A stretch of DNA of 64,000 nucleotides, taken from positions 10,974-74,973 of the forward strand of contig PBKA01000010.1 of assembly GCA_002721305.1 (NCBI GenBank), given 5' to 3'. The stretch comes from Acidimicrobiaceae bacterium (lineage in GTDB: Bacteria > Actinomycetota > Acidimicrobiia > Acidimicrobiales > Poriferisodalaceae). Under the pieces are notes generated by a model that saw only the letters and a list, made by a program, of their open reading frames with translations, did no database searches and had not been told where the DNA came from. Below are positions 46,734-61,960 of this stretch, piece after piece; the first letter of the stretch is position 1; each line of letters opens with the position of its first letter. Made by a program: the position numbers and the translations under genes.

Positions 46734-47963
46734 GTGCTAGCCGTGCCGGCGTCTGATGATCCAACTAATTCGTCGACACCATGGGACACAGTGCTATTGG
46801 TCACCGTTCTGGTACTAACGATGGCTTTAGGTGCCTTTCCGATTGTTGGAACCGCGGTCGTTGCGAACGCTCTGGCAGACGACTTAAAGATGTCACTCAC
46901 ATTGTTTGGTGCAGGTGTAGCGGTCAACACGCTGTTCGGTGCAGTGTTTGCACCTCTTTCCGGTCGGTTCAGTGACCGCCACGGGGGTAAGTGGTCATGT
47001 GTTCTTGTTCTAATTTCATCGGGAATCGGCACATTGATTTTGGCTTGCGCGACATCAGCCTCTGTCTTGATTCTTGGCCTCTTTGTCTCGAGTTACGGAC
47101 AAGGAGCTTGTAATCCCGCAACCAACAAACTGGTTGCCGAACGGGCTCCACCTGGTCGTCGAGGAACCATGACCGGCATTAAACAATCCGGAGTGCAACT
47201 GGGAATCCTGTTAGGAGGATTCACGCTCCCTGCGTTGAGTATTTGGCTCAATTGGCGAATTGCCATAGGGCTGTACGCGGTAACAGCGCTGTTGGTGGCT
47301 GGCCTTACTGTCATAGCTCTGCCTGACAGCCGGGACCGAACTCCGCCAAACACCGGATCCCATCAAACGTCATCAAAGACAAAGCTTCCTCGTTCTGTCT
47401 CGTTGTTAGCGTTTTACGCCCTATGTATGGGGTGTGTCGTAGGTGGCGTCGGAAGGTACACGGTTCTTTTCGCAGAGAACGCGTTGGCCATGTCAAACGT
47501 TAAGGCGGGCCTTGTAGCCGGTCTTCCCGGAGGAATAGCTATAGGTACCCGAATCATTTGGGCCCACCTCGCCGAACACAGAATAAGACCTCCAATCGCA
47601 CTAGCGATCCAATCCTCGTTGACAGCTCTCGTCATGCTGATGCTTTGGATTGCGGTGGCTGTCGGTTCTTGGATCATGTGGCCGGTTGCGGTGATATCGG
47701 CAGTCGGATTGAACGCTTGGAATGCGGTAGCGATGCTCTACGTGATTATCGGTGTACCACAACAAAACTCTGGTCGAGCCAGTGGTCGAGTCGTGATGGG
47801 GTTCATGTCCGGTCTGACCATCGGCGGGTTCTTTACAGGCCTCGCGGTTGACGTGACGGGAGCCTACGAAACAGCTTGGGCCTCGCTGTTTGTTCTGTCA
47901 GTCATAGCCACTCTTCTGGCTTGGCGGAGTGGTAAGGATCAGCACGGCTCGTCTTTGAACTAA
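46734..47963 (+). CDS. MFS transporter
   Basis: About 12 predicted hydrophobic segments and the loop 2-3 motif GRFSDRHGGK. Start uncertain: the ORF-track ATG 46710 would overlap the divergent dehydrogenase start by 8 nt, and GTG 46734 is an alternative. Confidence 0.8.
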   Translation: MLAVPASDDPTNSSTPWDTVLLVTVLVLTMALGAFPIVGTAVVANALADDLKMSLTLFGAGVAVNTLFGAVFAPLSGRFSDRHGGKWSCVLVLISSGIGTLILACATSASVLILGLFVSSYGQGACNPATNKLVAERAPPGRRGTMTGIKQSGVQLGILLGGFTLPALSIWLNWRIAIGLYAVTALLVAGLTVIALPDSRDRTPPNTGSHQTSSKTKLPRSVSLLAFYALCMGCVVGGVGRYTVLFAENALAMSNVKAGLVAGLPGGIAIGTRIIWAHLAEHRIRPPIALAIQSSLTALVMLMLWIAVAVGSWIMWPVAVISAVGLNAWNAVAMLYVIIGVPQQNSGRASGRVVMGFMSGLTIGGFFTGLAVDVTGAYETAWASLFVLSVIATLLAWRSGKDQHGSSLN

Positions 47964-49318
47964 AATCGGAAAGCTGCCGCAGGATGAGTGGATGGAAGCC
48001 GATCTCGTCCGAACAGCTTTTTTCGAAGACTTCCTGCAACGTATTCGCGTTGAGCAATACCGCGCTCTTGAAGGATAGGGACGACCCCGTCAACGAAATC
48101 AACGAAAGTTCCCGGCGTCACTGTGTAGGTCAAATTAAACCCGTCCAGCCCCGAGTTGAAGCGTCTTTCCAGTTCGTCCGCGACCTGCTCAACTGAACCA
48201 GTCAACCAAGCACCGGCCAAATTCGACTTGATCAAGTCACCCATAGTTCTGGTACCTGGGGGGGCTGAATCCAAGAGATTTTTGATGAATCCTTGAACCC
48301 GCTCTGTGGCAAAGGTCTCCAAGGGTTGATCCGGGTCAACGTCGCCGAGATCCACTCCAAGGTTTCCGCTGATGTGAGCTAACCCAGCCTCGACCGAGAG
48401 ATTTTCTTTGTACTCTGCGCGTTTAGCCAAAGCCTCGGTCTCCGTTCCTCCAACGATAGGAGCTACCCCGCCAATCAACTTGATGTCGGTGGTTGACCTT
48501 CCGTACGAGAGAGCTCGTTGATGTAGATCCTCGGCTATCGCTTCGCCACTACGAGAAGATCCAACAACAAAAATGCATTCAGCGTGTTGAGCGGCGAACA
48601 TTCGGCCCCGTTCTGACATGCCAGCTTGAAATAACATGGGTGTCCGTTGCGGGGATGGAGAGGACAGATGGGGGCCAGCCACGTCAAAATATTGACCATG
48701 ATGATTGATCTCGCGCACACGACCGGGTTCCACATAAACCCGTCGTTCCGAGTCATTGACCACGGCATCATCCGCCCAACTTCCCTCTAAAAGCTTGTAA
48801 ATAACTTCCAGATACTCCTCCGCCCTGGAATATCGCTCCTCGTGCGGTGGTAAACCGTCGAAACCGAGGTTGCTCCCGGCGTTGGGTAGATATGAGGTAA
48901 CAACATTCCAAGCCACTCGACCTGTTGTCAGATGATCCAGAGTCGAAAGTTGACGGGCGAAAGTGAAGGGATGAGCCTGCAGGACCGAACTTGTAAAAGC
49001 GAAACCAAGATGTTGGGTAACAGAAGCCATTGCTGGGATAAGAAGCATTGGGTCATTGACTGGGACCTGCATTGCCTCTTGGAAAGAGGTACTCGCCCCT
49101 CCTTTGTAGTTGTCGTAAAGACCGATTACGTCAGCGAGAAAGATGGTGTCAAGGCAACCTTTCTCGGCGACCTGAGCTAGTTCCAACCACGGTTCCAAAG
49201 AATTGAATTCGGTTTGGCGAGTATCACCTCTAGTCCACATGCCCTGCTGGATGTGGCTTACACAGTTCATGGTGAATGCGTTCAGAATCATGCGCCTGGG
49301 CGGTGAAACCACAGTCAT
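47960..49318 (-). CDS. FMN-dependent LLM monooxygenase of the NtaA/SnaA/DszA family
   Basis: N-terminus ILNAFTMNCVSHIQQGMWTRGDTRQTEF... is typical of that family; 452 aa. Confidence 0.8.
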   Translation of the reverse strand: MTVVSPPRRMILNAFTMNCVSHIQQGMWTRGDTRQTEFNSLEPWLELAQVAEKGCLDTIFLADVIGLYDNYKGGASTSFQEAMQVPVNDPMLLIPAMASVTQHLGFAFTSSVLQAHPFTFARQLSTLDHLTTGRVAWNVVTSYLPNAGSNLGFDGLPPHEERYSRAEEYLEVIYKLLEGSWADDAVVNDSERRVYVEPGRVREINHHGQYFDVAGPHLSSPSPQRTPMLFQAGMSERGRMFAAQHAECIFVVGSSRSGEAIAEDLHQRALSYGRSTTDIKLIGGVAPIVGGTETEALAKRAEYKENLSVEAGLAHISGNLGVDLGDVDPDQPLETFATERVQGFIKNLLDSAPPGTRTMGDLIKSNLAGAWLTGSVEQVADELERRFNSGLDGFNLTYTVTPGTFVDFVDGVVPILQERGIAQREYVAGSLRKKLFGRDRLPSTHPAAAFRF

Positions 49319-49375
49319 AACGGCCAGTCTCGCAGCAAACCGCCGACGGTGTCCTTAAGCTGCAAGAATCGTCTT

Positions 49376-50212
49376 ATGAATGCAGCAACTTTGTCCGGCT
49401 ATATCGAGCTCATCGAAGAACAGGGTTATTGCATTGTAGAAAACGCCTTTGATCAGGAGCTGCTTACATCGGTCAGAGACGCAGTGGCGCGACTTGAACA
49501 AAAGCTTGATGTGCAGCCACGAGGAAATCGAGCTGAGGGTTTTGCGACGAAGCGTATGTACAACTTGTTGGCCAAGGATCGAGTCTTCTGGGATCTCCCT
49601 GTCCATCCGAGCGTGCTTCCCTTCGCCGAACACCTCTTGGATGAAGAGTGCCTCTTATCTGGAACTACCTGCATGAACATAGGCCCGGGAGAAGTTCACC
49701 AGGGGCTACATAGCGACGATGGACTGGTAAGTGTCAGCAGGCCTCGAATTCCGTTCATGGTGACGACCATTTGGGCGTTCACTGACTTTACCGCTGAGAA
49801 CGGAGCGACCCGAGTAGTCCCGGGCTCTCACAAGTTCGACCACGAACCCCGCAAGGGCGAACATGTAGAGCACATACCCGCCGAAATGGAAGCGGGCTCA
49901 ATTCTTATAGTCAACGGTGGTACATGGCACTGTGGTGGGTCTAACACCACAGAGGACGATTGGCGGTTAGGAATCAGCGTCCAATACTGCCAAGGGTATC
50001 TCCGCCAGCAACAGAACCAGTACTACAGCCTCTTACCCGAAGATGTTAGAGAGATGCCCGAGAGGTTGGCTTCTTTGTGCGGTTTCACCCTTTACAAGGG
50101 CATCATGGGTCATGTGGATGGAGCGAGTCCCGGAAGGTTTCTGGGTGCCGCCCGAGCGGACGAAATTGCCTACGCAGCAATGAGAACCGAAAACGGAGTT
50201 GCCGAAAGTTGA
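49376..50212 (+). CDS. phytanoyl-CoA dioxygenase (PhyH) family Fe(II)/2-oxoglutarate oxygenase
   Basis: HxD triad element HQGLHSDD, distal His in GTWHCGG and ENGATRVVPGSH. Confidence 0.8.
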   Translation: MNAATLSGYIELIEEQGYCIVENAFDQELLTSVRDAVARLEQKLDVQPRGNRAEGFATKRMYNLLAKDRVFWDLPVHPSVLPFAEHLLDEECLLSGTTCMNIGPGEVHQGLHSDDGLVSVSRPRIPFMVTTIWAFTDFTAENGATRVVPGSHKFDHEPRKGEHVEHIPAEMEAGSILIVNGGTWHCGGSNTTEDDWRLGISVQYCQGYLRQQQNQYYSLLPEDVREMPERLASLCGFTLYKGIMGHVDGASPGRFLGAARADEIAYAAMRTENGVAES

Positions 50213-50246
50213 GCAGCCCATAGCTTCTGCGATCTAGGTTCGAGTC

Positions 50247-51023
50247 ATGGAGATTAAAGATCGCATAGCAATTATCACAGGAGGTGGCGGCGGCATTGGG
50301 TCGGCCACAGCCCGCAAATGGGTTTCGGAAGGCGCTAGACAAGTAGTGGTAGCTGACTACAACGAGGAAGCAGCCCTCTTAGTTGCCGAACAACTGGGTT
50401 GTACGGGTGTCGGGCTGGACGTGACCGATGAACAAGCTGTAAGTCAGCTGGTTGAAGACACTGAAACCACAAGCGGGCCAGTCGACATCTTCTTTTCGAA
50501 CGCTGGTGCGGGCGCAGAGGGTGGTGTCGAAGCTCCCAATGAGGCCTGGCAGTCGCAATGGGAACTACATGTGATGTCTCACGTGTACGCAGCCCGAGCC
50601 GTACTGCCTTCTATGACAGCGCGAGGGGAGGGCTACCTAGTGCACACGGCCAGCGCAGCCGGCCTTCTCGCAGCAGTCGGTTCGGCTCCGTATTCAGTTA
50701 CGAAGGCAGCGTGCATCAAACTTGCCGAAACACTTGCGATAACCCACGGCGACGACGGAATACGGGTTTCAGTGTTGTGTCCACAGGGAGTAAACACCGC
50801 CATGGCCCCTCGACAACTTGGCGACGGCGGCACAGATGGGATTGTCGAGCCTGATTTCGTCGCCGACAAGATCACACAGGCGATACAAGATGAAGAGTTC
50901 TTGATCTTGTCTCATCCAGAAGTACAAACCTACACGGAACGTAAGGCATCAGATCCTGACAGATGGCTTAACGGCATGCGTCGTCTTCGTAGAAGATCGC
51001 TTGATCTTCTCGAGGGCGCGTGA
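50247..51023 (+). CDS. SDR-family oxidoreductase
   Basis: TGGGGGIGSATA and the catalytic YSVTKAA. Confidence 0.85.
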   Translation: MEIKDRIAIITGGGGGIGSATARKWVSEGARQVVVADYNEEAALLVAEQLGCTGVGLDVTDEQAVSQLVEDTETTSGPVDIFFSNAGAGAEGGVEAPNEAWQSQWELHVMSHVYAARAVLPSMTARGEGYLVHTASAAGLLAAVGSAPYSVTKAACIKLAETLAITHGDDGIRVSVLCPQGVNTAMAPRQLGDGGTDGIVEPDFVADKITQAIQDEEFLILSHPEVQTYTERKASDPDRWLNGMRRLRRRSLDLLEGA

Positions 51024-51958
51024 ACAAGTCCGGCGGACTCCGTCCCAAACCCAGTCAGTCTTCCAACGTCACAACAGTCGGCTTAGTAGTTCTTACAGCA
51101 CTACTGATCGGACTCAATTACACGGTCATGAAGTGGGCCCTAGATCACACCACTCCGCTGGCGCTAGCCGCCCTTCGGACATCCGTCGGCGCCCCATTTT
51201 TGCTAGCGATAGCATTCCTACGCGGAGAAAAGTTGCCCCAAAACCGCCAACAATGGTTGGCCGTCTGGTGGATCTCGCTCTCTATCACAACCGTGTCAAG
51301 CGGATTCCTCGTCCTTGGAATTTCGCGCCTCTCGCCGGGCTTAGCAGCGATGCTGTCGGCAACTATGCCCCTCTTCACGGCCATCATCGCCGTGCTGGTG
51401 CTCGTTGAACTACCGGGGCATCGCGGATATTTTGGACTGCTCATTGGTCTGCTCGGGGCCGTATTTTTGGCCATTCCGGCACTCGGATCAGGCAACACGA
51501 TTCTTGGTATAGCGTTTTCGCTCATTTCCAGCGTCAGTTGGGCAATAGGAGCAGTCCTCAACAAGCGGTTACGGGGGGCACTAGAAATCAGCCCTTTGAT
51601 GCTTGTTGCCCTACAGATCACATTTTCCGCGGTGTGTCTGCACTTAACGGTTCTATTTATTGAAGATTGGTCGGACACCTCAATTAGTTGGGGACTCATA
51701 GTGCCGTTGTTATATGCGGGCATTCCGTCGCTTGCGGTCACGTTCTACCTCTTTGCAAGTGTTCTTCGACGTGCGCCTGCGATACAGGGAGCTGCCGTCG
51801 CGTACCTGACACCCTTCTTTGGTGTGTTGTTTAGTTGGCTCCTCGTCGGTGATCGGCTTGGAGGTGTCGAAATAGTCGGCGGCTTGCTCGTCATCGCAGG
51901 TGTCGCACTTTTGTCTGTTGATCGTCGATCATCAGACCTGCAATCGATTGACGAGTGA
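51020..51958 (+). CDS. DMT-superfamily (EamA-like) transporter
   Basis: About ten hydrophobic segments with two EamA-like halves. GTGA overlap with the SDR gene. Confidence 0.8.
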   Translation: MNKSGGLRPKPSQSSNVTTVGLVVLTALLIGLNYTVMKWALDHTTPLALAALRTSVGAPFLLAIAFLRGEKLPQNRQQWLAVWWISLSITTVSSGFLVLGISRLSPGLAAMLSATMPLFTAIIAVLVLVELPGHRGYFGLLIGLLGAVFLAIPALGSGNTILGIAFSLISSVSWAIGAVLNKRLRGALEISPLMLVALQITFSAVCLHLTVLFIEDWSDTSISWGLIVPLLYAGIPSLAVTFYLFASVLRRAPAIQGAAVAYLTPFFGVLFSWLLVGDRLGGVEIVGGLLVIAGVALLSVDRRSSDLQSIDE

Positions 51959-51973
51959 CGTAGCCTCGGGGCT

Positions 51974-53119
51974 ATGGCAGATAGCGACATTAAGGCAATG
52001 ACGGAAAATCTTGATGCCGTCGAGTTTGATGAAACAGCATTCACTGTCCCCGTTCCTCTAACTGAGGCAAAGGTGGCGATCGTGACTTCTGCATCTCTAC
52101 ATCACCCCGACGACGAAGACTTCTCGCCCATGGACACGGGCTATCGAGTGTTGAAATCCGAGCCTCGCGATTATGTGATGGGGCATTGGAGTCCAAACTT
52201 TGATGTGACAGGCTTCGCGCTGGATATCAACACCGTGTTTCCCATTGACCGTCTCGACGAGTTAGCAGCGCAAGGAGTCATCGGCTCCGTAGCCGAAGAA
52301 CACCTTGCGTATGCGGGTAACCAGTTCGAGTTGTCTGCGATACGGATGGACAGTGGGCCAGCAGGGGCCAAGTTCCTCAAAGAACAAGATGTCGATGTCG
52401 TCTTACTCACCCCTGTCTGACCGTTGTGCACGCGTACCGTGAGTACGCTCGCTCACATATTCGAATCGGAAGGTCTTGCCACCATTGCCTTCGGCTCCAT
52501 CAAATCCCAGATAGAAGCCACAGCGCCTCCGCGAGGACTTTGGTGTGATTTTCCGTTGGGAAGGCCTCTCGGCGTTCCGTCCGACCCAGAGTTCCAACAT
52601 CGGGTGCTGGGGAAGGCCTTTGAGTTGCTCGATAGCCCAGAACCAGTTTTTGCAGAGTATGACATCAGTATCACTGATGACGAGACCGAGGTTTTGGCAT
52701 GTCCAATGCCCCCCCGACATGACCCAGATGCCCACCCGGCGGTCGACGAAGCCAACGGCCTGCGTCCGGCATATGAACGCGCTATTGCTGAATATGGCAA
52801 CCGAGTCGGAGCCGGGAGGGTTGTTCAGGTCGACGATATAACGACCGCGATAGAAGCCTTTGTGAAGATTGCCGAAGGGACTCCGTGGAAAGAAGCTGGA
52901 GTACCCGGAATTCCATCACGAGTGAGTCAAGACATTCGGGGATATTACGAAACAGCGGCGTTAGCACTGTCAGACTATGCACCCCCGGCGTGGGCTGGGA
53001 CGCGTTGGTTCCTAGACCAAACCGAGGCTGGCAAAGTGATCATGGCTGCGAGGCAGGCCATGGCTGACGCGGGTGAACAAAATCCCATTTGGTTCTACAT
53101 GGCTCCGGGGGATCGCTAG
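51974..53119 (+). CDS. glycine/sarcosine/betaine/D-proline reductase selenoprotein B (GrdB/PrdB) family protein; candidate selenoprotein with in-frame UGA at 52418-52420
   Basis: ORFs 51974-52420 and 52424-53119 share one frame and are separated only by TGA CCG. The read-through gives ...DVDVVLLTPV-U-PLCTRTVSTLAHIFESEGLATIAFGS...PPRGLWCDFPLGRPLG..., which matches my memory of single-polypeptide GrdB-like proteins. There is no SD or ATG/GTG start for the second half. Confidence 0.7.
52432..52448 (+). promoter_or_regulatory. SECIS-like hairpin 11 nt downstream of the in-frame UGA
   Basis: Stem GCGTAC (52432-52437), loop CGTGA, stem GTACGC (52443-52448). A possible lower helix pairs TGTGC (52425-52429) with GCTCA (52451-52455), with one mismatch. 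Confidence 0.5.
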
Positions 53120-53127
53120 TCAAGGTT

Positions 53128-54363
53128 GTGATCTTTTCGGTTCAGCCAGTTGAGCACAGATTCTTCGGTTGGCGCGTCGTGGCGGCCGCGTTTACGGTCC
53201 TTTTTGTCGTTTACGGGATCCAGTTCAGTTTTGGCACCTTTGTCGGGGACGTAGTTGATGACACCGGGTGGTCCGAAAATCGGCTCCAATTGATTTTCGC
53301 TATCTACATCGGGTTATACAGCGCTTTATCGGCGATAAGCGGATGGGTCACTGACCGGATGGGACCACGACCCGTGGTGGCAGTAGGGGCGATCTTGTTA
53401 ACTTGCGGCTACCTGCTATGGGCCACCGCTGACAACATTGTTGTTGTTGCTATCGGGATGGCCGTAATCGCTCCCCTTGGAATGAGTTGTTCTTGGGTGC
53501 CTTGCAATGCAACGGTTGTGCGGTGGTTTGTTGTCCGACGAGGTTATGCGACGGCAATCGCAACTGCAGGCGGCAGCCTCGCCAACATTTTGGTCCCACC
53601 GATTGCAGCGGTACTTGTTTCAGCATACGGATGGCGGATAGCGATTCTTGCGATGTCGCTGATGGGCGGTGTCTGCATGTTGCTCAGTTCGATCGTGCTG
53701 GAGCGAGACCCCGAAGGAATAGGACAACACCCTGATGGACGGCCCGCGTCCAGACCCAATCCGGGCGAAGACCTCCTAGAAGGAATGACTCCCGCCGAAG
53801 CATGGAGAAGTCCGACGTATTGGAAGATCTTCGGGATGTACGCACTCACATTTGTTGCGGTGTTCGTGCCATTTGTTCACTGTGTGCAATTCGCCCAGAG
53901 CTTGGGTGCCTCACTTCAAACTGCCTCAACTGTTATCTCGACAATCGGAATCGGTGGTCTGCTTGGCCGCCTTGTGATGGGACCAGTATCTGATCGGATC
54001 GGCAGAAAAAATGCGGTCATGTTGGCCTTGCTCTTAGAGACGGCATCATTTCTGGGAATGGCCGCTACCAACACCTTGTGGCTGTTGTACTTGTCGGCGG
54101 CAACATTTGGGTTTGCTTATGGGGGAGGAGTTGTGGTCTTCCCGCCCCTCGTTGCAGACCTGTTTGGCCGCGCCCATGCTGGGTCAATCGTGGGCAGAAT
54201 CTTCGCGACCGCCGGAGCAATGGCGGCGATTGGCCCCTACACAGCACAGGTGTTGCGCGATGCATTAGGTGACTACAGATGGGCTTTCTTGCTCTCAGGT
54301 ATAGCGAATGGGCTCGCTTTCATGCTCGCAACACGGCTTCCTCGGCATGCCGAACAACCCTAA
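53128..54363 (+). CDS. MFS transporter (oxalate/formate antiporter-like)
   Basis: 12-TM-like profile and the motif GWVTDRMGPRP. I chose GTG 53128, just after the upstream stop; the ORF-track start 53089 overlaps the upstream gene. Confidence 0.8.
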   Translation: MIFSVQPVEHRFFGWRVVAAAFTVLFVVYGIQFSFGTFVGDVVDDTGWSENRLQLIFAIYIGLYSALSAISGWVTDRMGPRPVVAVGAILLTCGYLLWATADNIVVVAIGMAVIAPLGMSCSWVPCNATVVRWFVVRRGYATAIATAGGSLANILVPPIAAVLVSAYGWRIAILAMSLMGGVCMLLSSIVLERDPEGIGQHPDGRPASRPNPGEDLLEGMTPAEAWRSPTYWKIFGMYALTFVAVFVPFVHCVQFAQSLGASLQTASTVISTIGIGGLLGRLVMGPVSDRIGRKNAVMLALLLETASFLGMAATNTLWLLYLSAATFGFAYGGGVVVFPPLVADLFGRAHAGSIVGRIFATAGAMAAIGPYTAQVLRDALGDYRWAFLLSGIANGLAFMLATRLPRHAEQP

Positions 54364-54441
54364 TTGTTTGATCTGACGGCTATGGAGAGGCGCTGACACC
54401 TCTGTCGCTACTAATCTGGAGTTGAAGCAGGAGGGGACACG

Positions 54442-57400
54442 ATGGCGCTAGCTGACTTCAAACTGGAGGACCGATTCACACGTAGCGAGGGAGACGTCGC
54501 TATGTCAGGAGTCCAGGCTCTACTCAGAGTCCTTTTGGATCAGTTGCGCGCCGATAGACGCGACGGACTTAACAACGCGGCCATGGTGTCCGGCTACCGG
54601 GGCTCCCCGTTGGGAGGCATTGACACGCTGATGCTCAGCAACGCTGAGGAACTGGTTGACAACAACATCCAGTTCGTACCCGGCCTCAACGAAGATCTTG
54701 GGGCTACAACTGTTTGGGGTTCGCAGCTAGCCAACCGCAACTTCGACGGCAAATTCGATGGCGTGTTGGGTATGTGGTACGGCAAAGCTCCCGGTGTGGA
54801 TCGATCGGGCGACGCCATTCGGCACGCAAACGTTTGCGGTGTCGATCCCAAAGGTGGCGTACTGCTCGTAGCTGGTGATGACCCGGCCTCTAAGTCGTCG
54901 ACGCTGGCATCTGAATCTGAGTTCGCGTTGCTTCACTTTCAAACCCCAATTCTTTATCCAGGAACGGTTCAAGAGGTAGCTGATTACGGTCGAATTGGCT
55001 ACGAACTTTCCCGGTACAGCGGACTGTGGGTGGCGCTGAAAATTGTGACAAATGTCGCGGACGGATACTCGACCATCAAGGTAGGCCCCGGCCGAGTGCA
55101 AATGGAACGTCCCGACTTTGAATGGGATGGCGTTCCTTGGCAACACACCCAACAGGACGCGCTCTTTGGTCCGTTTGCAGTCCGCCAAGAACTCGAAATC
55201 CATGAAGGTCGGATGGAAGCCACTGACGCCTTCACTCGCCTCAATAGCCTCGACACCGTCAGCGGAGCTACCTCTGATGCCCGAATAGGATTTGTAGCGG
55301 CAGGCAAGACCTATTACGACCTTCGAGAGGCACTGGACCGAATGGGCCTTGACGAAGCCGCACTCAAGCACCGCGGCGTACGGCTCTATAAACCGGCGGT
55401 CGTGTGGCCACTTGAAGCAAACGGAGTCAAAGAATTTGCCAGCGGTCTCGAAACGATCGTGGTCGTTGAAGAAAAGCGGGCCTTCATTGAGACCTTCATG
55501 CGTGAGATTCTTTACGGATCAACCGACGCCCCAATGATTATCGGAAAACGTGACGCAGAAAACGCATTCTGGTTCCCCGGTCACGGAGAGATGGACGCGG
55601 ATCTCATCGCCCGAAAAATTCGCCCGTTCCTCGTTAACCGGCTAGGAGAAGACGCAGTAGGTCCAGCCGTACGTGAACGCCTGACGATTCCCGTTGCACT
55701 CGGGGAACCCGACACCAAAAAACAATCGAATCGCACACCCAGTTTCTGTTCCGGCTGTCCCCACAATCGTTCCACCTGGGTTCCGGAAGGTTCCGAAGCC
55801 GGCGGCGGCATCGGGTGCCACGGCATGGCGTCCATGACACCAACGCGCAACGTCAAAGGGACCACCCAAATGGGGGGAGAAGGAGTTCAATGGGTCGGAG
55901 CCGCACCATTTGTCACCATGGGACACAGATTCCAGAACATAGGTGACGGCACCTTCCACCACTCCGGTTCCCTGGCGGTCCGACAGGCTATTGCTGCGGG
56001 TACCAACGTCACGTACAAAATCCTTTACAACGCGGCAGTCGCAATGACAGGCGGACAGGATGTCGACGGCGGAATGACAGTCCCAGAGTTAACTCGCTCA
56101 CTTGAAGCCGAGGGTGTTACGAAGGTCATGGTATTAACCCATGACACGGAAAAATATGGGGAAGGCGCAAACTTCGCTGATGGTACGGAAGTCTGGTATC
56201 GAGACCGGCTTGATGAAGCGCAACGGATCCTGCGCGACACGCCAGGGTGCACGGTTCTCATTTATGACCAACCCTGTGCAGCCGAACTACGTCGCGACCG
56301 GAAACGAGGCAAGGTTGCCGAGCCGACGATGGCGGTCTTCATCAACGAGGCTGTCTGCGAAGGTTGTGGAGACTGTGGCGAGAAATCGAGTTGCCTCTCG
56401 GTGCAGCCCGTGGAAACAGAGTTCGGCAGGAAAACAGCTATCCACCAATCTTCATGCAACAAGGACTACACCTGTCTCGACGGAGACTGCCCAGCGTTCA
56501 TAGAAGTCGTACCCGCAGGCGCTGTGCCTGAAAAGTCGACCCTCGCTGTGGCCGAAATCGGCGACGACCAATCCGAACCTGACCGCCTTGACGAAGGCAA
56601 CGTCCTGATGATCGGAATCGGAGGCACCGGCGTTGTTACAGTCAACCAGCTGCTGGCGACAGCTGCCCTCCTAGACGGCAAAGAAGCCCACGGACTCGAT
56701 CAAACCGGACTCGCTCAAAAAGGCGGCCCAGTGGTATCCAACCTCAAGATTCGACGCCCCGATAGCGAACTTGAACTCGGGGAAGCCAACAAGATCGCGA
56801 CTGGAGAAGCCGATGCCTACATCGTCTTCGATTTATTGAGCGGGACAAACCCAGCCAACCTGGAAAAGGCGATGCCAGGACGCACCGTGGCCCTCGTGTC
56901 GTCCAGCAAAGTACCTACAGGCGCGATGGTTCGAGACACCTCGGCTGAATATCCAGAATGGTCGGCCCAACAGGAGTCGATCGACAGCGCCACCGTCCCA
57001 GAAAAAAACGTCTACTACGACGCAGGAAATCTGTCGGACAATCTATTTCGATCGCACATGCCAGCGAACATCATCGTCCTGGGCTCTGCCTATCAAAGCG
57101 GCGTAGTGCCGATCAGCGCAGCAGCAATAGAACGCGCCATCGAACTCAACGGTGTAGCCGTGGAAATGAACACACAGGCGTTCAGAATCGGTCGACAGAT
57201 AGTTATTGAACCTGAGTTCATTGAAAAACTGGGAATAGAGCGCCTAGGGAAAGTCAACCGCAAAAACACTGTCTCGGAAGGATTCGAGGCTCTTATTCAA
57301 TCAGTGCCAGACCCATCAGAAGAACTCGAACGGCTTCTAAGAATCCGAGTGCCCGACCTCGTTGACTACCAGAACACCAAATATGCGAAGGCCTATGTAG

Positions 57401-57927
57401 AGAAAGTCAGCGCAGTTAGGGCGGCAGAAGCAAGTGTGGGTCAAGACACGCGCTTGTCGGAGACCTACGCCCGGTACCTCTACAAACTGATGGCGTACAA
57501 GGACGAATACGAAGTCGCCCGCCTCCACAGGTCTAAAGCATTCCAACAAGCAGTGCGTGATCAATTCGGAGACCGAAGCAAAGTCACATATAAGTTGCAG
57601 CCGCCCTCAATGAGACGACTGGGTCTTGACCAAAAAATTGGGTTGGGTCGCTCAGGCGACGTAGCGTTTGCGGTCTTACGCAGGATGAAGTTCTTACGCG
57701 GAACCCCACTTGACATCTTCGGCAACACAACACACCGCAAGATGGAACGCGGACTGATCAACGAATACCAAACAATGATCGATTCGGTGATAGCCGATCT
57801 TCGCCCCGAAAGTTACGACAAAGCGCTCCGAATAGCGGAACTCCCCGACATGATCCGCGGATACGAAGGCGTTAAGGAAGCAAACGTAGAGAGATTCCGA
57901 CAGGCTGCCGACGAAATATTGGGTTAA
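54442..57927 (+). CDS. indolepyruvate:ferredoxin oxidoreductase family protein (fused alpha/beta, 2-oxoacid:ferredoxin oxidoreductase)
   Basis: 1161 aa. TPP-binding region GCPHNRS...GIGCHGM...GDGTFHHSG. Ferredoxin-like Cys clusters CEGCGDCGEKSSC...CNKDYTCLDGDCPAF. Confidence 0.9.
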   Translation: MALADFKLEDRFTRSEGDVAMSGVQALLRVLLDQLRADRRDGLNNAAMVSGYRGSPLGGIDTLMLSNAEELVDNNIQFVPGLNEDLGATTVWGSQLANRNFDGKFDGVLGMWYGKAPGVDRSGDAIRHANVCGVDPKGGVLLVAGDDPASKSSTLASESEFALLHFQTPILYPGTVQEVADYGRIGYELSRYSGLWVALKIVTNVADGYSTIKVGPGRVQMERPDFEWDGVPWQHTQQDALFGPFAVRQELEIHEGRMEATDAFTRLNSLDTVSGATSDARIGFVAAGKTYYDLREALDRMGLDEAALKHRGVRLYKPAVVWPLEANGVKEFASGLETIVVVEEKRAFIETFMREILYGSTDAPMIIGKRDAENAFWFPGHGEMDADLIARKIRPFLVNRLGEDAVGPAVRERLTIPVALGEPDTKKQSNRTPSFCSGCPHNRSTWVPEGSEAGGGIGCHGMASMTPTRNVKGTTQMGGEGVQWVGAAPFVTMGHRFQNIGDGTFHHSGSLAVRQAIAAGTNVTYKILYNAAVAMTGGQDVDGGMTVPELTRSLEAEGVTKVMVLTHDTEKYGEGANFADGTEVWYRDRLDEAQRILRDTPGCTVLIYDQPCAAELRRDRKRGKVAEPTMAVFINEAVCEGCGDCGEKSSCLSVQPVETEFGRKTAIHQSSCNKDYTCLDGDCPAFIEVVPAGAVPEKSTLAVAEIGDDQSEPDRLDEGNVLMIGIGGTGVVTVNQLLATAALLDGKEAHGLDQTGLAQKGGPVVSNLKIRRPDSELELGEANKIATGEADAYIVFDLLSGTNPANLEKAMPGRTVALVSSSKVPTGAMVRDTSAEYPEWSAQQESIDSATVPEKNVYYDAGNLSDNLFRSHMPANIIVLGSAYQSGVVPISAAAIERAIELNGVAVEMNTQAFRIGRQIVIEPEFIEKLGIERLGKVNRKNTVSEGFEALIQSVPDPSEELERLLRIRVPDLVDYQNTKYAKAYVEKVSAVRAAEASVGQDTRLSETYARYLYKLMAYKDEYEVARLHRSKAFQQAVRDQFGDRSKVTYKLQPPSMRRLGLDQKIGLGRSGDVAFAVLRRMKFLRGTPLDIFGNTTHRKMERGLINEYQTMIDSVIADLRPESYDKALRIAELPDMIRGYEGVKEANVERFRQAADEILG

Positions 57928-58061
57928 GGGTGGGCAAGTCGCCCCTTTCACATCTCTAGTTATTGAACCTCCGGGACGGATCACGGCGGCCGAACGGCCG
58001 AGGACCATGTGATCTCCTAGTTAACTGTGCGAATGTGTCTGCGAGCCAGCAGACTGGACGT

Positions 58062-59456
58062 ATGGATAACCAGGACCTGGATATCGCTAACTCTGTACTT
58101 GATCTCATCGGCAAGACGCCGATGGTCAAGTTGCCGAGAGTCGGCAGAACAGTTGCCTGTTCGATTGTCGCCAAACTTGAGACCACTAACCCTGGCGGAA
58201 GTTCCAAAGATAGACCAGCCCTCACAATGATCGACGACGCCGAAAAGGCTGGCCTTCTAAAGCCCGGAGGAACCATCATCGAACCCACCTCTGGGAACAC
58301 TGGCGTCGGTCTGGCCATAGTCGCCGCACAACGTGGTTATGACTGCATTTTCGTCATGACCGACAAAGTCAGCAACGAAAAGGTTGCCCTCCTAGAGGCG
58401 TACGGAGCGGAGGTCGTTGTTTGTCCCGTGGCCGTTCCACCGGAAGACCCTCGTTCTTACTACTCCACAGCGGAACGACTGGTTAAAGAAATCCCGAACG
58501 CGTATCGCCCCAACCAGTATCACAACCAAGCGAACCCTAGATCTCATTACGAAACCACGGGACCCGAAATCTGGGAACAAACTAAAGGCCGTGTTACCCA
58601 CTTTGTTGCTGGCGCAGGCACAGGAGGCACAATCACAGGGGTCGGCAGATATTTAAAGGAACAAAATCCCAAGATAACAATAGTTGCCGCTGATCCAACT
58701 AATTCCGTGTACTCAGGTGGCAGCGGCCGACCATACCTAGTTGAAGGTGTGGGCGAAGACTTTTGGCCTGACACCTACGATCCGGGAATAGTTGATTCCA
58801 CCATCGCGATCACCGATGCCGAGTCGTTTGCTATGGCGCACCGAGTCACTGTCGAAGAGGGAATCCTTATCGGTGGTTCAGGAGGAACAGCGGTTGCGGC
58901 TGCGTTGCGAGTTGCTGAAAATCTGACTGATCAAGACCTGGTCGTCGTCCTCATTCCTGACAGCGGCCGCGGATATTTGAGCAAAGTTTTTGACAAGTCG
59001 TGGATGATCAACATGGGCTTCTCGAGATACGAAGGGTCGACGGTCTCAGATGTTCTTGATCGCATAAGCGGAGGCGAACCCAACTTGATTTATGTTCGCC
59101 CCGAAACCAAGGTCGGAGACGCTCTTGAGATCATGCGTCAGCATGACCTACCTGTAATTCCGGTGGCAAGTGGTGAAATGCCGATAGCGGCCGCGGAAGT
59201 CATGGGTTCGGTGTCCGAAGACTCCTTGACGGAGCAATCTTTTGACGCTGATGGCTCGCTCAACCAGAGAGTCGATGAAGTGATGGGTCCGCACCTACCA
59301 ATGGTTGGAATAGGAGAATCCTTGGAGATCGCGGTCAATGAGCTTCAGAACTCGCCGGTGCTTCTAGTGCTTGACAACGGCCAGCCACGTAGTTTGTTGA
59401 CTGAATCAGACCTAAAAGGCTCTGACATTGGAGAACACGACCGGGAGGTGAGTTGA
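58062..59456 (+). CDS. cbs: cystathionine beta-synthase (CysK-fold PLP domain plus tandem CBS domains)
   Basis: PLP-Lys region TNPGGSSKDRPAL, SGNTGVGLA and GAGTGGTITG, with a C-terminal CBS pair. ATG 58062 preferred over the ORF-track start 57963. Confidence 0.9.
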   Translation: MDNQDLDIANSVLDLIGKTPMVKLPRVGRTVACSIVAKLETTNPGGSSKDRPALTMIDDAEKAGLLKPGGTIIEPTSGNTGVGLAIVAAQRGYDCIFVMTDKVSNEKVALLEAYGAEVVVCPVAVPPEDPRSYYSTAERLVKEIPNAYRPNQYHNQANPRSHYETTGPEIWEQTKGRVTHFVAGAGTGGTITGVGRYLKEQNPKITIVAADPTNSVYSGGSGRPYLVEGVGEDFWPDTYDPGIVDSTIAITDAESFAMAHRVTVEEGILIGGSGGTAVAAALRVAENLTDQDLVVVLIPDSGRGYLSKVFDKSWMINMGFSRYEGSTVSDVLDRISGGEPNLIYVRPETKVGDALEIMRQHDLPVIPVASGEMPIAAAEVMGSVSEDSLTEQSFDADGSLNQRVDEVMGPHLPMVGIGESLEIAVNELQNSPVLLVLDNGQPRSLLTESDLKGSDIGEHDREVS

Positions 59457-59457
59457 A

Positions 59458-60648
59458 ATGATGGGCGGTGACCCCCTTCTTTCAGGATTCGAAGATCCAG
59501 AGGACTTCGGATTCGAGACACGCGCGATTCGAGCAGGCCAACCCCACGACCAGCGAACCGGCGGGGTTGTGACGCCGATATCGTTGTCGACTACCTTCGC
59601 TCAGGATGCACCCGGATCTCCAAGGAACGGATATGAATATTCGAGAACGGGAAACCCGACCCGTCACGCTTATGAAGCGTGCGTTGCTTCCCTAGAAGGT
59701 GCCAAATATGGTTTCGCCTTTGCAAGTGGCCTCTCAGCCGAAGATGCCTTATTTCGCCAGCTATCACCCGGGTCTCAAATTTTGTTGGGTAACGACGCCT
59801 ACGGAGGGACCTTTCGACTGATCGACAGTGTCCACGGTAAGAAATCTGGCTTGGCCAACGCGGCTGTCGATCTGACGAAACCTGAACAAATCAAAGAGGT
59901 CTGGACCCCAGACACAAAGATGGTGTGGCTGGAGACACCCACCAACCCACTGCTTTCGGTATTCGATATTCAGGCCATTGCTGATCTAGTGCATGACTTG
60001 GGAGGCACCGTCGTAGTGGACAACACTTTCGCGACTCCCTATTTGCAGCAACCCCTGTCGCTCGGAGCCGACGTAGTAGTGCATTCCGCAACAAAGTACA
60101 TCGGTGGTCATAGCGATGTTGTCGGAGGTTTCGTGGCTACCAACCATGAATCACTCGCCGACGACCTGGTCTATGTACAAAACGCGGTCGGAGCAGTTCC
60201 AAGTCCGTTTGACTGTTATCTGGCGTTGAGAGGGGTCAAGACACTGCCGGTGCGCATGGATCGCCACTGTGAAAACGCCCAACTCATCGTCTCACTACTC
60301 AAAGCACATGATGCGGTGAGCCAAGTGCTGTATCCCGGGCTGGCGGAACACCCCGGTCATGAGATTGCTTCTAGACAGATGAAGAACTTCGGAGGGATGG
60401 TCAGTTTCCGATTGGCGGCGGGACAAGCGGCAGCTGAGCAGCTCGTTACCGCGACAGAAATTTTCACGCTCGCAGAATCTTTAGGGGCGGTTGAATCGCT
60501 CATCGAGCACCCAGGGGTGATGACGCATCTGTCCGTTGCGGGTTCCGCTCTCGAAGTACCTGACGACTTGGTACGAGTGTCGGTAGGGATTGAATCAGCT
60601 GACGATCTCGTGGCGGATCTCACCCAAGCTCTAGATCAACTCGGATAG
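59458..60648 (+). CDS. cystathionine gamma-lyase/gamma-synthase family PLP enzyme
   Basis: YSRTGNPT and the PLP-Lys motif HSATKYIGGHSDVVGG. Confidence 0.9.
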   Translation: MMGGDPLLSGFEDPEDFGFETRAIRAGQPHDQRTGGVVTPISLSTTFAQDAPGSPRNGYEYSRTGNPTRHAYEACVASLEGAKYGFAFASGLSAEDALFRQLSPGSQILLGNDAYGGTFRLIDSVHGKKSGLANAAVDLTKPEQIKEVWTPDTKMVWLETPTNPLLSVFDIQAIADLVHDLGGTVVVDNTFATPYLQQPLSLGADVVVHSATKYIGGHSDVVGGFVATNHESLADDLVYVQNAVGAVPSPFDCYLALRGVKTLPVRMDRHCENAQLIVSLLKAHDAVSQVLYPGLAEHPGHEIASRQMKNFGGMVSFRLAAGQAAAEQLVTATEIFTLAESLGAVESLIEHPGVMTHLSVAGSALEVPDDLVRVSVGIESADDLVADLTQALDQLG

Positions 60649-60674
60649 ACAACCCCGCGGGAATTCACACGGCC

Positions 60675-60690
60675 GTAACACAAAAGAAAC
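60675..60690 (+). promoter_or_regulatory. candidate GlnR box GTAAC-N6-GAAAC upstream of amt
   Basis: GTAACacaaaaGAAAC matches the actinobacterial GlnR half-site pattern gTnAc-n6-GaAAc. It lies about 70 nt upstream of the amt ATG. Confidence 0.35.
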
Positions 60691-60757
60691 TGGCCCATGA
60701 TTTTGGTTGTCTACTTTCTGTTGAAGCGGATGCCCGTCCGCGCGGAAGGAAGATCGA

Positions 60758-61960
60758 ATGGAAGGCAACATTGCCTGGATCCTGACCTCTGCTGCCTTGG
60801 TCCTATTTATGGTGCCAGGGTTAGCTCTCTTTTACGGAGGCATGGTCAGGGCCAAGAACGCGCTCAACATGTTGAACATGAACATGTGGTGCCTCGGAAT
60901 CGTGCCCGTGGTTTGGGTACTCGTTGGATTCAGCCTGGCGGCAGGCGATAGCGGCCGAAGCTGGCTCGGAGATCTGAGCATCGTTGGCATGAAAGGCATT
61001 CACGATGCTGAAGGAATAGCAACTTTCGCATTCCTCATGACCTTCGCATGCATTACACCGGCATTGATCTCGGGTGCTGTGGCAGACCGTATGAAATTCT
61101 CAGCCTGGATGATCTTTGTTCCTGTGTGGTCGTTGGTGGTGTACGCCCCTGTCGTTTATTGGATATATGGCGCAGACGGCTGGATCTTCAATTTGCCTGC
61201 TCATGACTTTGCTGGCGGTACAGCGATCCATGTCAACGCGGGTGCTGCTGCCTTGGCGCTGGCGATTGTTCTCGGAAAGAGAACCGGATGGCCACAAAAT
61301 CGACCTGCGCCGCACAACGTCCCGTTCGTGATGTTGGGGGCAGGAATCTTGTGGTTCGGATGGTTCGGATTTAACGCCGGATCGGCGCTTGCAGCAGATG
61401 GGGCGGCTACACAAGCGTTCGTGAACACGTTTATAGCGGGGGCTGCGGGCATGGTTGCGTGGATGGTTATCGAAATGGCGAAAACAGGAAAAGTCAGCAC
61501 AATCGGCATGGCATCGGGCATCGTCGCAGCGTTAGTTGCCATAACTCCGGCAGCCGGTTTCGTCGGCTCCATGCATTCGTTCGTGTTTGGTGCATTAGCA
61601 GGTGCCATTTGTTTCTTTGCTATCGAAGCCAAATTCCGATTCGGCTTCGACGACAGCCTTGACGTTGTGGGTATCCACTTTGTTGGAGGCGCCGTAGGAG
61701 GCATCTTGCTCGGATTTATGGCTGATGCGTCGGCGGTCCCAGGCGGAGACTTCGAAAACGGTGTCTTTTTCGGGGGAGGAATTCTCCTTTGGAACCAAAT
61801 CCTCTCGATAGCAGTGGTTACAGCCTTTTCGTTTGTCGCCACCTACATCATTGCCAAGGCGATCGACAAGACAATGGGGCTCAGAGTCACCGAGAGCACT
61901 GAAATGACGGGACTTGATGTCAGCGACCATGGCGAAGCGGCCTATGTGATCGAATCCTAA
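60758..61960 (+). CDS. amt: ammonium transporter
   Basis: AHDFAGGTAIHVNAGAAALA, FGWFGFNAGSA and LDVVGIHFVGGAVGGIL, which carry the twin-His and Phe-gate motifs. Confidence 0.95.
   Translation: MEGNIAWILTSAALVLFMVPGLALFYGGMVRAKNALNMLNMNMWCLGIVPVVWVLVGFSLAAGDSGRSWLGDLSIVGMKGIHDAEGIATFAFLMTFACITPALISGAVADRMKFSAWMIFVPVWSLVVYAPVVYWIYGADGWIFNLPAHDFAGGTAIHVNAGAAALALAIVLGKRTGWPQNRPAPHNVPFVMLGAGILWFGWFGFNAGSALAADGAATQAFVNTFIAGAAGMVAWMVIEMAKTGKVSTIGMASGIVAALVAITPAAGFVGSMHSFVFGALAGAICFFAIEAKFRFGFDDSLDVVGIHFVGGAVGGILLGFMADASAVPGGDFENGVFFGGGILLWNQILSIAVVTAFSFVATYIIAKAIDKTMGLRVTESTEMTGLDVSDHGEAAYVIES

Follow-up and report, generated by a model that had tools for sequence, protein, structure and literature searches.

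The locus and its reading frame

The window analysed here, a stretch of 64,000 nt from an Acidimicrobiaceae bacterium, carries on its forward strand a gene of 381 codons plus a TAG stop (51974..53119), preceded by a gene for an EamA-family transporter (51020..51958; Pfam EamA; drug/metabolite or carboxylate/amino-acid/amine type) and followed by one for an MFS transporter of the oxalate/formate or monocarboxylate type (53089..54363; Pfam MFS_1). The central gene, which public annotation has split in two, very probably is a genuine selenocysteine-encoding gene from a marine actinobacterium. From the ATG at 51974 to the TAG at 53117-53119 it forms a single frame of 381 sense codons, the sole interruption being an in-frame TGA at 52418-52420 (residue 149), which in the translated frame lies in the context VVLLTPV*PLCTRTV. 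A recheck of the frame agreed with an earlier note on this DNA, which had placed the open reading frames 51974-52420 and 52424-53119 in one frame with only TGA CCG between them, and the nominal start of the second at a TTG two codons past the TGA. The 381-codon read-through protein with a UxxC arrangement at the junction, as predicted in the same note, could also be recovered: a U-P-L-C motif (52418..52429), comprising the putative redox residues Sec149 and Cys152, is found at this position, and its P, L and C do not vary across 81 sequences. Residues 1-219 are PrdB/GRDB-like, and residues 220-381 represent a family-specific C-terminal domain.

The split recurs everywhere in the databases, where hundreds of entries consist of either a 148-aa N-terminal piece, labelled “GrdB family”, or a 226-aa C-terminal piece, labelled “hypothetical proteins”. 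These entries are really misannotated halves of one gene. The public gene callers start the second ORF at a GTG (52439-52441) inside the loop of the SECIS-like hairpin described below. The gene is a textbook-quality case of a misannotated bacterial selenoprotein.

The most conserved neighbour of the selenoprotein gene is the MFS transporter. In 42 loci a homolog of it is encoded no more than 3.5 kb from the TGA; downstream sequence of 4 kb or more was available for 63 loci. Gene calls put the MFS start at 11155 or 11116 (locus coordinates), and an alternative start at 53128 is located 8 nt past the selenoprotein stop. In NCBIfam the MFS protein matched SfMCT (230.9 bits) and the oxalate/formate antiporter (146 bits), both below cutoff. 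The MFS gene is probably co-transcribed with the selenoprotein gene. The EamA gene ends 15 nt before the selenoprotein gene begins and is adjacent in 24 loci; its NCBIfam matches, YedA and 2A78, were likewise below cutoff. Across ±5 kb in 80 genomes the recurrent annotated neighbours were MFS, EamA, SDR, PhyH, an IOR-family oxidoreductase and a flavin monooxygenase, of which the O2-dependent ones (PhyH dioxygenase, NtaA/DmoA monooxygenase) suggest that the host is aerobic. A promoter and terminator scan of 49000-54600 gave signals at or below background. In GC-rich relatives an ORF of 427 aa runs antisense to the gene; this ORF and two long ORFs in the neighbour clusters that have no Pfam match were judged to be antisense artefacts.

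Relation to the PrdB and GrdB families

The assignment to the selenoprotein B family, made in the earlier note, is supported with one qualification: PrdB and GrdB models do match across the junction, but with scores below the curated PrdB and GrdB cutoffs. The best-scoring curated model was TIGR04483 (PrdB), which aligned with residues 25-219, across the UGA, at 107.6 bits (E = 6.5e-31) compared to an equivalog cutoff of 300 bits. Pfam GRDB (PF07355) scored 22.1 bits with the read-through protein and 26.0 bits with the N-terminal half, above the gathering cutoff of 22, but this match is marginal and partial (profile positions 210-345 of 347). The TIGR01918 subfamily model reached 31.4 bits against a cutoff of 65.45, and the GrdB, GrdF and GrdH models 28.7-35 bits against cutoffs of 602-800. 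As judged from its sequence by these curated cutoffs, the window protein is a distant relative of PrdB and GrdB and a member of neither enzyme family.

Several features are shared with these enzymes. The alignment to TIGR04483, the profile that represents PrdB of Clostridium sticklandii and C. difficile, covers nearly the whole profile (positions 23-218 of 238), and the Sec in U-x-x-C corresponds to the motif type given for clostridial PrdB in a review table. With GrdB, GrdF and GrdH (PF07355; TIGR01917, TIGR01918) the protein has in common the C-terminal GRDB part ending at the Sec motif, again with Sec in a U-x-x-C context, although the N-terminal 200 residues of GrdB are missing. Compared to PrdB, on the other hand, the window protein is about 140 residues longer (381 versus ~240) and carries a conserved extra domain of ~160 residues (220-381; 52631..53116), which is absent from clostridial PrdB and predicted to be mostly helical. 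The TIGR04483 alignment stops right before this extension, at residue 219 (profile position 218), and the C-terminal piece gave no Pfam match.

For a structural view we used the AlphaFold model of P0096, a Cys homolog with 49% identity to the window protein (mean pLDDT 79). In this model Cys152, the equivalent of the Sec, is located between a strand (145-149) and a helix (153-168), Cys155 lies in the first helical turn, and helices prevail from about residue 259 onward. A PDB sequence search returned nothing (best E = 0.2), and neither did a PDB fold search return anything significant (best E = 0.027, TM about 0.2), so that the fold comparison provided no structural lead to function.

The rank of TIGR04483 among the curated models, the UxxC motif and JGI/NCBI fragment names that include “D-proline reductase (dithiol) PrdB” could be taken to mean that the protein is a functional B subunit of a clostridial-type D-proline (or glycine/betaine) reductase. 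We consider this very unlikely, given how far the scores remain below the PrdB and GrdB/F/H cutoffs, the conserved extra domain and the O2-dependent neighbours; PrdB hosts are amino-acid-fermenting anaerobes, whereas the present gene belongs to a marine actinobacterium with an aerobic-type neighbourhood. The expected partner genes were not encountered either: prdA (pyruvoyl subunit) and prdC-F are not near the window gene, nor are grdA, grdE, grdC and grdD; genes of the PrdA/GrdE/GrdA/PrdC type were not present among the recurrent annotated neighbours (±5 kb, 80 loci), and prdA and accessory prd genes were not among the neighbours annotated within ±10 kb of the locus in the window population. 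Because a pyruvoyl partner (PrdA/GrdE) is not found nearby and a C-terminal domain has been added, the protein would not act as a B subunit of the clostridial type. The family is still named after the anaerobic Stickland enzyme, which it almost certainly is not.

The UGA codon and the SECIS-like hairpin

The codon at the junction is TGA in all 80 species-representative Acidimicrobiia genomes investigated (pairwise protein identity of the orthologs 62-100%), and never TAA, TAG or a sense codon. In tblastn searches residues 1-381 were matched contiguously in the 80 genomes, and purifying selection was found to be alike on both sides of the TGA (pN/pS: N half, 0.257; C half, 0.262), so that the UGA is kept among orthologs with coding constraint upstream and downstream of it. 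Relatives of the gene occur in 564 species-level genomes, and its carriers include the complete chromosomes OZ220472.1, OZ220497.1, NZ_OZ242363.1, NZ_OZ244781.1, NZ_OZ242342.1 and NZ_OZ242038.1; for the window population there is the MAG GCA_036165875.1. Elsewhere in the window TGA is an ordinary stop, as had been stated earlier: among 47 stop-to-stop frames with 250 codons or more, 19 end in TGA, 15 in TAG and 13 in TAA, which rules out a reassigned genetic code. A crude scan for other TGA-interrupted ORFs in the window, which masked the true gene via an antisense open frame, gave nothing convincing, a weak negative.

The position taken by U aligns with Cys in full-length homologs, as anticipated in the earlier note. 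This was the case for the three closer homologs (P0065, P0093 and P0096) and for 12 of the 14 fused distant homologs (50%-cluster representatives), and at the nucleotide level the TGA site is occupied by TGT in L081 and by TGC in L082. These Cys forms are fused, and homologs were thus not two separate polypeptides; a consistent division of that kind would have spoken against the selenoprotein call. Among database relatives the split (Sec) forms predominate.

A 17-nt hairpin (52432..52448) begins 11 nt after the UGA. It is made up of a 5′ stem GCGUAC (52432-52437), a loop CGUGA (52438-52442) and a 3′ stem GUACGC (52443-52448), with two possible outer pairs (52428-52429 with 52451-52452). Codon entropy over codons 153-159 is 0.24 bits, the lowest of any 7-codon window, compared to a gene mean of 1.40, and this trough of synonymous-site variation sits exactly over the hairpin. 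Once divergent family members are included, 95.6% of cells are paired in the stem register, compared to 12-55% in slid registers, compensatory changes occur at five of the six stem pairs, and the covariation score of 0.78 (0.27 for shuffles) was reached by none of 500 shuffles; this strong covariation depends on 12 divergent sequences added from a published supplement, while within the 80 close orthologs alone a single stem pair covaries. The loop follows the pattern N-G-U-N-N, with G and U nearly invariant, and its positions 1 and 4 covary as a closing pair (CG in 15, GC in 3). The hairpin is missing from the Cys homologs L081 and L082. These data show that the hairpin is maintained by selection at the RNA level. 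Single-sequence folding energy was no better than that of shuffles (z = 0.93), although the hairpin is comprised in the MFE structure, and it was not counted as evidence. In Rfam no family was found at gathering or at E ≤ 10, noise aside, which is to be expected as bacterial SECIS elements are poorly covered in this database.

The minimal E. coli SECIS is a 17-nt upper stem-loop located 11 nt from the UGA, whose GGUC loop exposes a G and a U. The window hairpin resembles this fdhF element in size, spacing and loop, but differs from it in stem sequence, and its role in SelB binding is putative. For bacterial SECIS elements in general, a small G-containing apical loop has been described (Zhang, Fomenko & Gladyshev 2005, PMC1088965). 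Lying directly 3′ of the UGA, under selection, and topped by a small loop in which a G is present, the window hairpin is in keeping with a SECIS element of the bacterial type.

A pattern scan of ~1.43 Mb on both strands (TGA, 9-14 nt, a 6-bp stem and an NGUNN loop) yielded 95 matches: 81 represent this site, and two come from paralogs within the same superfamily. The other 12 are background, and a single one of these is inside a long open frame. As the same TGA recurs in 80 of 80 orthologous loci, the site is far beyond chance.

The split made by all gene callers would be correct if the TGA were a true stop, in which case the locus would encode two polypeptides, a 148-aa GRDB-like one and another of 226-231 aa re-initiated at the GTG or TTG; the fact that the ~20 kb sampled per genome contained no Sec-decoding gene also agrees with this. 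We regard such an arrangement as very unlikely. At this degree of divergence a plain stop would be exchanged with TAA or TAG, whereas TGA is present in all 80 orthologs and in all 12 Sargasso relatives; the Cys-containing homologs are fused; the supposed GTG start lies inside the loop of a conserved hairpin, the position and shape of which fit a SECIS element; and the U-x-x-C redox motif would be divided between two proteins.

The genes for selenocysteine decoding were searched for in the DNA around the locus. ARAGORN identified no tRNA-Sec among 14 tRNAs in the 64-kb window and the 80 loci (~20 kb per genome). SelA and SelD motif regexes returned only noise in the window and the ~1.37 Mb of flanks of 80 relatives, a small sample per genome, and tblastn with E. 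coli SelD and SelA sequences gave no matches in the sampled DNA; at ~20 kb per genome these searches are uninformative and do not count as negatives. On the other hand, SelD, SelA and SelB have been reported in the cultured Acidimicrobiales Ilumatobacter and Ca. Microthrix, and for Actinomarina the reports give selA/B/C/D in each of 84 complete genomes. These results bear on the idea that a near-cognate or suppressor tRNA inserts Cys, Trp or Gly at the UGA, the hairpin being a stimulator of read-through in general. The sampled DNA, with no Sec genes, is compatible with it, but homologs have Cys opposite this site, the usual picture in Sec/Cys families, the apical loop is of the small, G-containing kind known from the Sargasso study for SECIS elements of bacteria, related Acidimicrobiia carry the full Sec machinery, and TGA terminates the 19 long open frames mentioned above. 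Recoding to an amino acid other than selenocysteine thus has a very low probability.

A sequencing or assembly error, in which TGA stands for TGC or TGT in one assembly only, or a pseudogene, is an a priori possibility of practically negligible weight and is refuted by the codon being shared by 80 independent species-level genomes, by the exact N-terminal product being present in 76 blocks of public assemblies and by purifying selection downstream of the TGA.

Published marine relatives and a possible role

A family listed as “proline reductase PrdB, UxxC” appears in the Sargasso Sea survey of 2005 (PMC1088965), with 42 genes, and of the GOS survey (Zhang & Gladyshev 2008, PMC2398784), with 235 Sec versus 110 Cys forms. 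The Sargasso entry AACY01584242 shows 52% identity to the window protein over 172 residues (E = 9e-60), has the same motif (VVLLTPVuPLCTRTVGTL) and a hairpin in the same register (GCGUAC-CGUGG-GUACGC), and the match takes in the start of the C-terminal extension, which is conserved in this entry. Twelve genes of the Sargasso catalogue carry a hairpin in the same register, and TGA is present in all 12. In similarity, motif and SECIS position the window gene agrees with these sequences, and it is a member of the marine PrdB-like UxxC family that the Sargasso Sea and GOS surveys had catalogued before. The predominance of Sec forms in the GOS data matches that of the split forms seen here. The novelty implied in the earlier note was consequently overstated, as the two surveys already contain this family. 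The surveys dealt with anonymous short reads, the family being named by best homolog, and the portions consulted give no host taxon, full-length gene model or genomic context, whereas the present locus provides a full-length gene that is flanked by transporters and assigned to Acidimicrobiia. The family has counted among the most abundant surface-ocean selenoproteins since 2005.

Overall, the earlier selenoprotein call is supported, each of its sequence-level predictions that was open to a test having proved correct, and we hold it highly probable that the full explanation is correct, namely a Sec-decoded gene of 381 residues with a SECIS element, a redox pair and a transporter operon, which is not a PrdB and belongs to a catalogued family. 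During translation the hairpin would recruit SelB-GTP-Sec-tRNA(Sec), the UGA being read as selenocysteine and not as a stop. Sec149 and Cys152 of the U-P-L-C motif are predicted by the structural model to cap a helix at its N-terminal end, where they may form a selenol/thiol pair that cycles via a selenenylsulfide, in analogy to the B subunits of PrdB/GrdB reductases. The gene order suggests that the selenoprotein gene is probably co-transcribed with the EamA and carboxylate-type MFS transporter genes, and the substrate would for this reason most likely be a small carboxylate or an amino-acid-like metabolite. This functional part draws on homology, gene order and the model of a Cys homolog that shares 49% identity.

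The window gene leaves the knowledge of selenocysteine decoding itself unchanged. The function of the family, by contrast, has become experimentally approachable through four results: an assignment to Acidimicrobiia from the sea and from sponges, a defined SECIS element, a neighbourhood from which PrdA is absent and a recurrent linkage of the gene to a carboxylate-type transporter. Tentatively, and with more doubt than confidence, the marine PrdB-like proteins could be stand-alone, PrdA-independent selenoenzymes in which the C-terminal domain replaces the pyruvoyl partner. Their substrate in aerobic Acidimicrobiia would then be a small metabolite of the carboxylate or amino-acid type, moved by the MFS and EamA transporters. 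If so, they would put the GRDB fold to a new catalytic use, in a selenoprotein family that ranks among the most abundant of the surface ocean.

Reading frame and conservation of the in-frame TGA

The gene at 51974-53119 (+) translates as a single frame of 381 sense codons closed by TAG, with a lone interruption, a TGA at 52418-52420, in the residue context VVLLTPV*PLCTRTV. The ORF-list entries 51974-52420 and 52424-53119 each cover one half of that frame, as an earlier note on this DNA had claimed. The note had also taken TGA for an ordinary stop here, and the code is indeed not reassigned: the window contains 47 stop-to-stop open frames of 250 codons or more, closed by TGA in 19 cases, by TAG in 15 and by TAA in 13.

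A protein search with the window protein returned hundreds of 226-aa entries, 70-90% identical to it, covering only the C-terminal 59%, and three full-length proteins at ~50% identity. When the N-terminal half was the query, the search gave hundreds of proteins with a length of exactly 148 aa, many of them titled [quoted passage not shown] or “PrdB”. As the entries are 226-aa and 148-aa pieces, gene callers evidently cut the gene at one identical point everywhere. A genome scan with one genome per species identified a relative in 564 genomes, of which the best 80 were used as loci. These were almost all MAGs labelled Acidimicrobiia/Actinomycetota (two were labelled Acidobacteria or Planctomycetaceae), from sources including seawater and sponges. 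In these best 80 loci residues 1-379 or more matched contiguously.

The aligned codon was TGA in 80/80 loci at pairwise protein identities as low as 62%, which excludes a freely evolving stop codon. A pseudogene is excluded by the equal purifying selection on the two halves (pN/pS 0.257 and 0.262). A sequencing read error, which might have hidden a TGC or TGT, is excluded both by the invariant TGA and by the presence of the window's exact 148-aa product in 76 blocks of public assemblies (e.g., GCA_036165875.1).

The expectation that the UGA-encoded residue aligns with Cys in full-length homologs was borne out by P0065, P0093 and P0096, three such proteins with TPVCPxCTRT or TPICPVCTRT at the motif. 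When 1.84 billion cluster representatives were searched, the family comprised 844 members (E <= 1e-3). Among the matches listed there were split forms of ~225-250 aa, whose match began at their own residue 2-3, and fused forms of ~380-420 aa, with Cys at the U position in 12 of 14 fused representatives; the homologs are thus not always two separate polypeptides.

A covariation-backed SECIS-like hairpin

A 17-nt hairpin at 52432-52448, GCGUAC-CGUGA-GUACGC, begins eleven nt past the UGA and matches the minimal E. coli fdhF element in its length of 17 nt and its spacing of 11 nt. Across 81 orthologs the overlapping codons 153-159 are the lowest-entropy 7-codon window of the gene (mean 0.24 bits vs 1.40 +/- 0.53 gene-wide), with Ser157 encoded by AGT in 81/81 sequences and Thr158 by ACG in 77/77. 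The hairpin is absent from two Cys homologs. Its single-sequence folding energy is unexceptional (z = 0.93), and an Rfam search found no matching model.

Close orthologs offer a single covarying stem pair (U-A to C-G, four genomes), where the amino acid changes too. The supplement of the Sargasso Sea survey (Zhang, Fomenko & Gladyshev 2005, PMC1088965) contains 12 far more divergent “PrdB” genes, in which the hairpin keeps its register with different stems, including CCAGAC/GUCUGG, CCAAAC/GUUUGG, GCGCGC/GCGUGC and CUCCGU/GCGGAG. In the combined alignment of orthologs and Sargasso genes, five of the six stem pairs show two-sided changes, 95.6% of cells are paired vs 12-55% with the partner slid, and the covariation score is 0.78 vs 0.27 for shuffles, none of 500 reaching 0.78. 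Covariation extends to the loop, where positions 1 and 4 change together (C-G in 15, G-C in 3), which leaves a conserved G-U exposed. This covariation supports an explicit SECIS model for the gene.

Two Poriferisodalis genomes (L056:10439-10495 and L070:10439-10495, locus coordinates) have the loop GGUCA in place of CGUGA through two synonymous changes (ACC to ACG, GTG to GTC), the closing pair passing from C-G to G-C; the same swap occurs in two of the Sargasso genes. The GTG at 52439-52441 (Val156), used by public callers as start of the 226-aa “hypothetical protein”, sits within the hairpin loop and is therefore an annotation artefact, one that recurs in hundreds of database entries. At L040:3198-5291 (-), and likewise at 33 further loci rich in GC, the selenoprotein gene is spanned by a long antisense ORF (median length 427 aa) that beats both true half-ORFs under length-based gene picking, a further route by which the gene can be lost from annotation.

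Family assignment and known relatives

For profile searches, Cys was put in place of the in-frame stop. The D-proline reductase PrdB model TIGR04483 (NCBIfam) matched residues 25 to 219, crossing the UGA, with 107.6 bits (E = 6.5e-31), far short of its equivalog cutoff of 300 bits. The GrdB, GrdF and GrdH models and the subfamily model TIGR01918 gave only 29-35 bits, also below cutoff, and Pfam GRDB was barely reached (22-26 bits vs 22) in the N-terminal half only. The GrdB/PrdB-family membership proposed in the earlier note therefore stands as a PrdB match across the junction and a marginal GRDB match, and fails at the level of the named subunits. The protein exceeds PrdB by ~140 residues and has an additional conserved C-terminal domain predicted to be mostly helical; no Pfam family matched residues 220-381. 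PrdA/GrdE, GrdA and PrdC genes were absent from the recurrent annotated neighbours. A D-proline reductase B subunit by curated criteria was rejected given the sub-cutoff score, the extra domain and the lack of a recurrent PrdA/GrdE-type neighbour, and this sequence evidence suggests that the name PrdB misleads about function.

The selenoprotein family itself is already known. “Proline reductase PrdB, UxxC” is the third most abundant selenoprotein family in the Sargasso Sea data (42 genes; PMC1088965), and the GOS survey counts 235 Sec and 110 Cys forms (Zhang & Gladyshev 2008, PMC2398784). The Sargasso entry AACY01584242 has the motif TPVuPLCTRTV exactly as here, and over 172 residues, reaching into the C-terminal domain, it shares 52% identity with the window protein. 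What is added here is the full-length gene model, the host lineage, the scale of mis-annotation, the explicit SECIS model, and evidence against PrdB as a functional label.

Two further in-frame TGAs, each inside a long open frame and with the same hairpin grammar, were observed in relatives' loci at L071:11652 (+), directly 3' of the main gene (CLVPV*PNCTRAVG), and at L023:1715 (+), ~8.7 kb upstream of it (LLVPV*PVCHQTVS). Their contexts mark them as paralogs that belong to other branches of this marine superfamily of PrdB-like proteins, so some Acidimicrobiales carry several such selenoprotein genes, sometimes in tandem.

Neighbourhood, proposed role and Sec-decoding genes

An EamA transporter gene ends 15 nt before the selenoprotein start (24 loci), and upstream of it lie an SDR (35 loci) and a PhyH-type dioxygenase (32 loci). 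Together with an NtaA/DmoA-family FMN monooxygenase (-; 472 bits vs cutoff 280), they occupy 47960-51023, preceding the EamA-selenoprotein-MFS genes in what resembles an aerobic catabolic cluster. The MFS carrier, of oxalate/formate or monocarboxylate type, is directly downstream; 42 loci have a homolog at a distance of up to 3.5 kb, and 63 loci extend at least 4 kb downstream. A fused 1161-aa indolepyruvate-ferredoxin-oxidoreductase-family gene follows at 54442-57927 (+; NF009589, 1408 bits vs cutoff 816), and in 35 loci its spacing from the selenoprotein-MFS pair is constant; it is odd company for O2-dependent enzymes. More distant relatives have other neighbours (amidase, molybdopterin oxidoreductase).

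In the AlphaFold model of P0096 (mean pLDDT 79), the Sec-equivalent residue lies between beta-strand 145-149 and the N-terminus of helix 153-168, with the second Cys in the helix's first turn. This modelled arrangement is the geometry usual for a redox-active dyad, from which we infer that Sec and Cys may form a selenol/thiol pair cycling via a selenenylsulfide. The substrate could be a small carboxylate or amino-acid-type compound handled by the adjacent carriers. Among solved structures, none resembles the protein by sequence or fold.

No tRNA-Sec, selA or selD was found in the window or in ~1.37 Mb of relatives' flanks, which represent only ~20 kb per genome. The literature supports the Sec trait in this lineage: Ilumatobacter coccineus, I. 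nonamiensis and Ca. Microthrix parvicella are each SelD+, SelA+ and SelB+, with 15, 10 and 7 selenoproteins respectively (Peng et al. 2016), and a 2026 preprint reports selA, selB, selC and selD in 84/84 complete Actinomarina genomes. Four of the TGA-bearing loci are from Ilumatobacteraceae MAGs.

Beyond the cluster, 57963-61960 (+) holds genes for a cystathionine beta-synthase-type protein (PALP and CBS domains), for a PLP enzyme of Cys/Met metabolism and for an ammonium transporter, in the same orientation and with relative positions kept in 23-35 related loci. A crude scan also picked up a TGA-interrupted open frame at 62833-63189 (-) (...DVGG*CRKC...), which is probably spurious; it overlaps, in a different frame, a 375-aa ORF at 62814-63941 (-).
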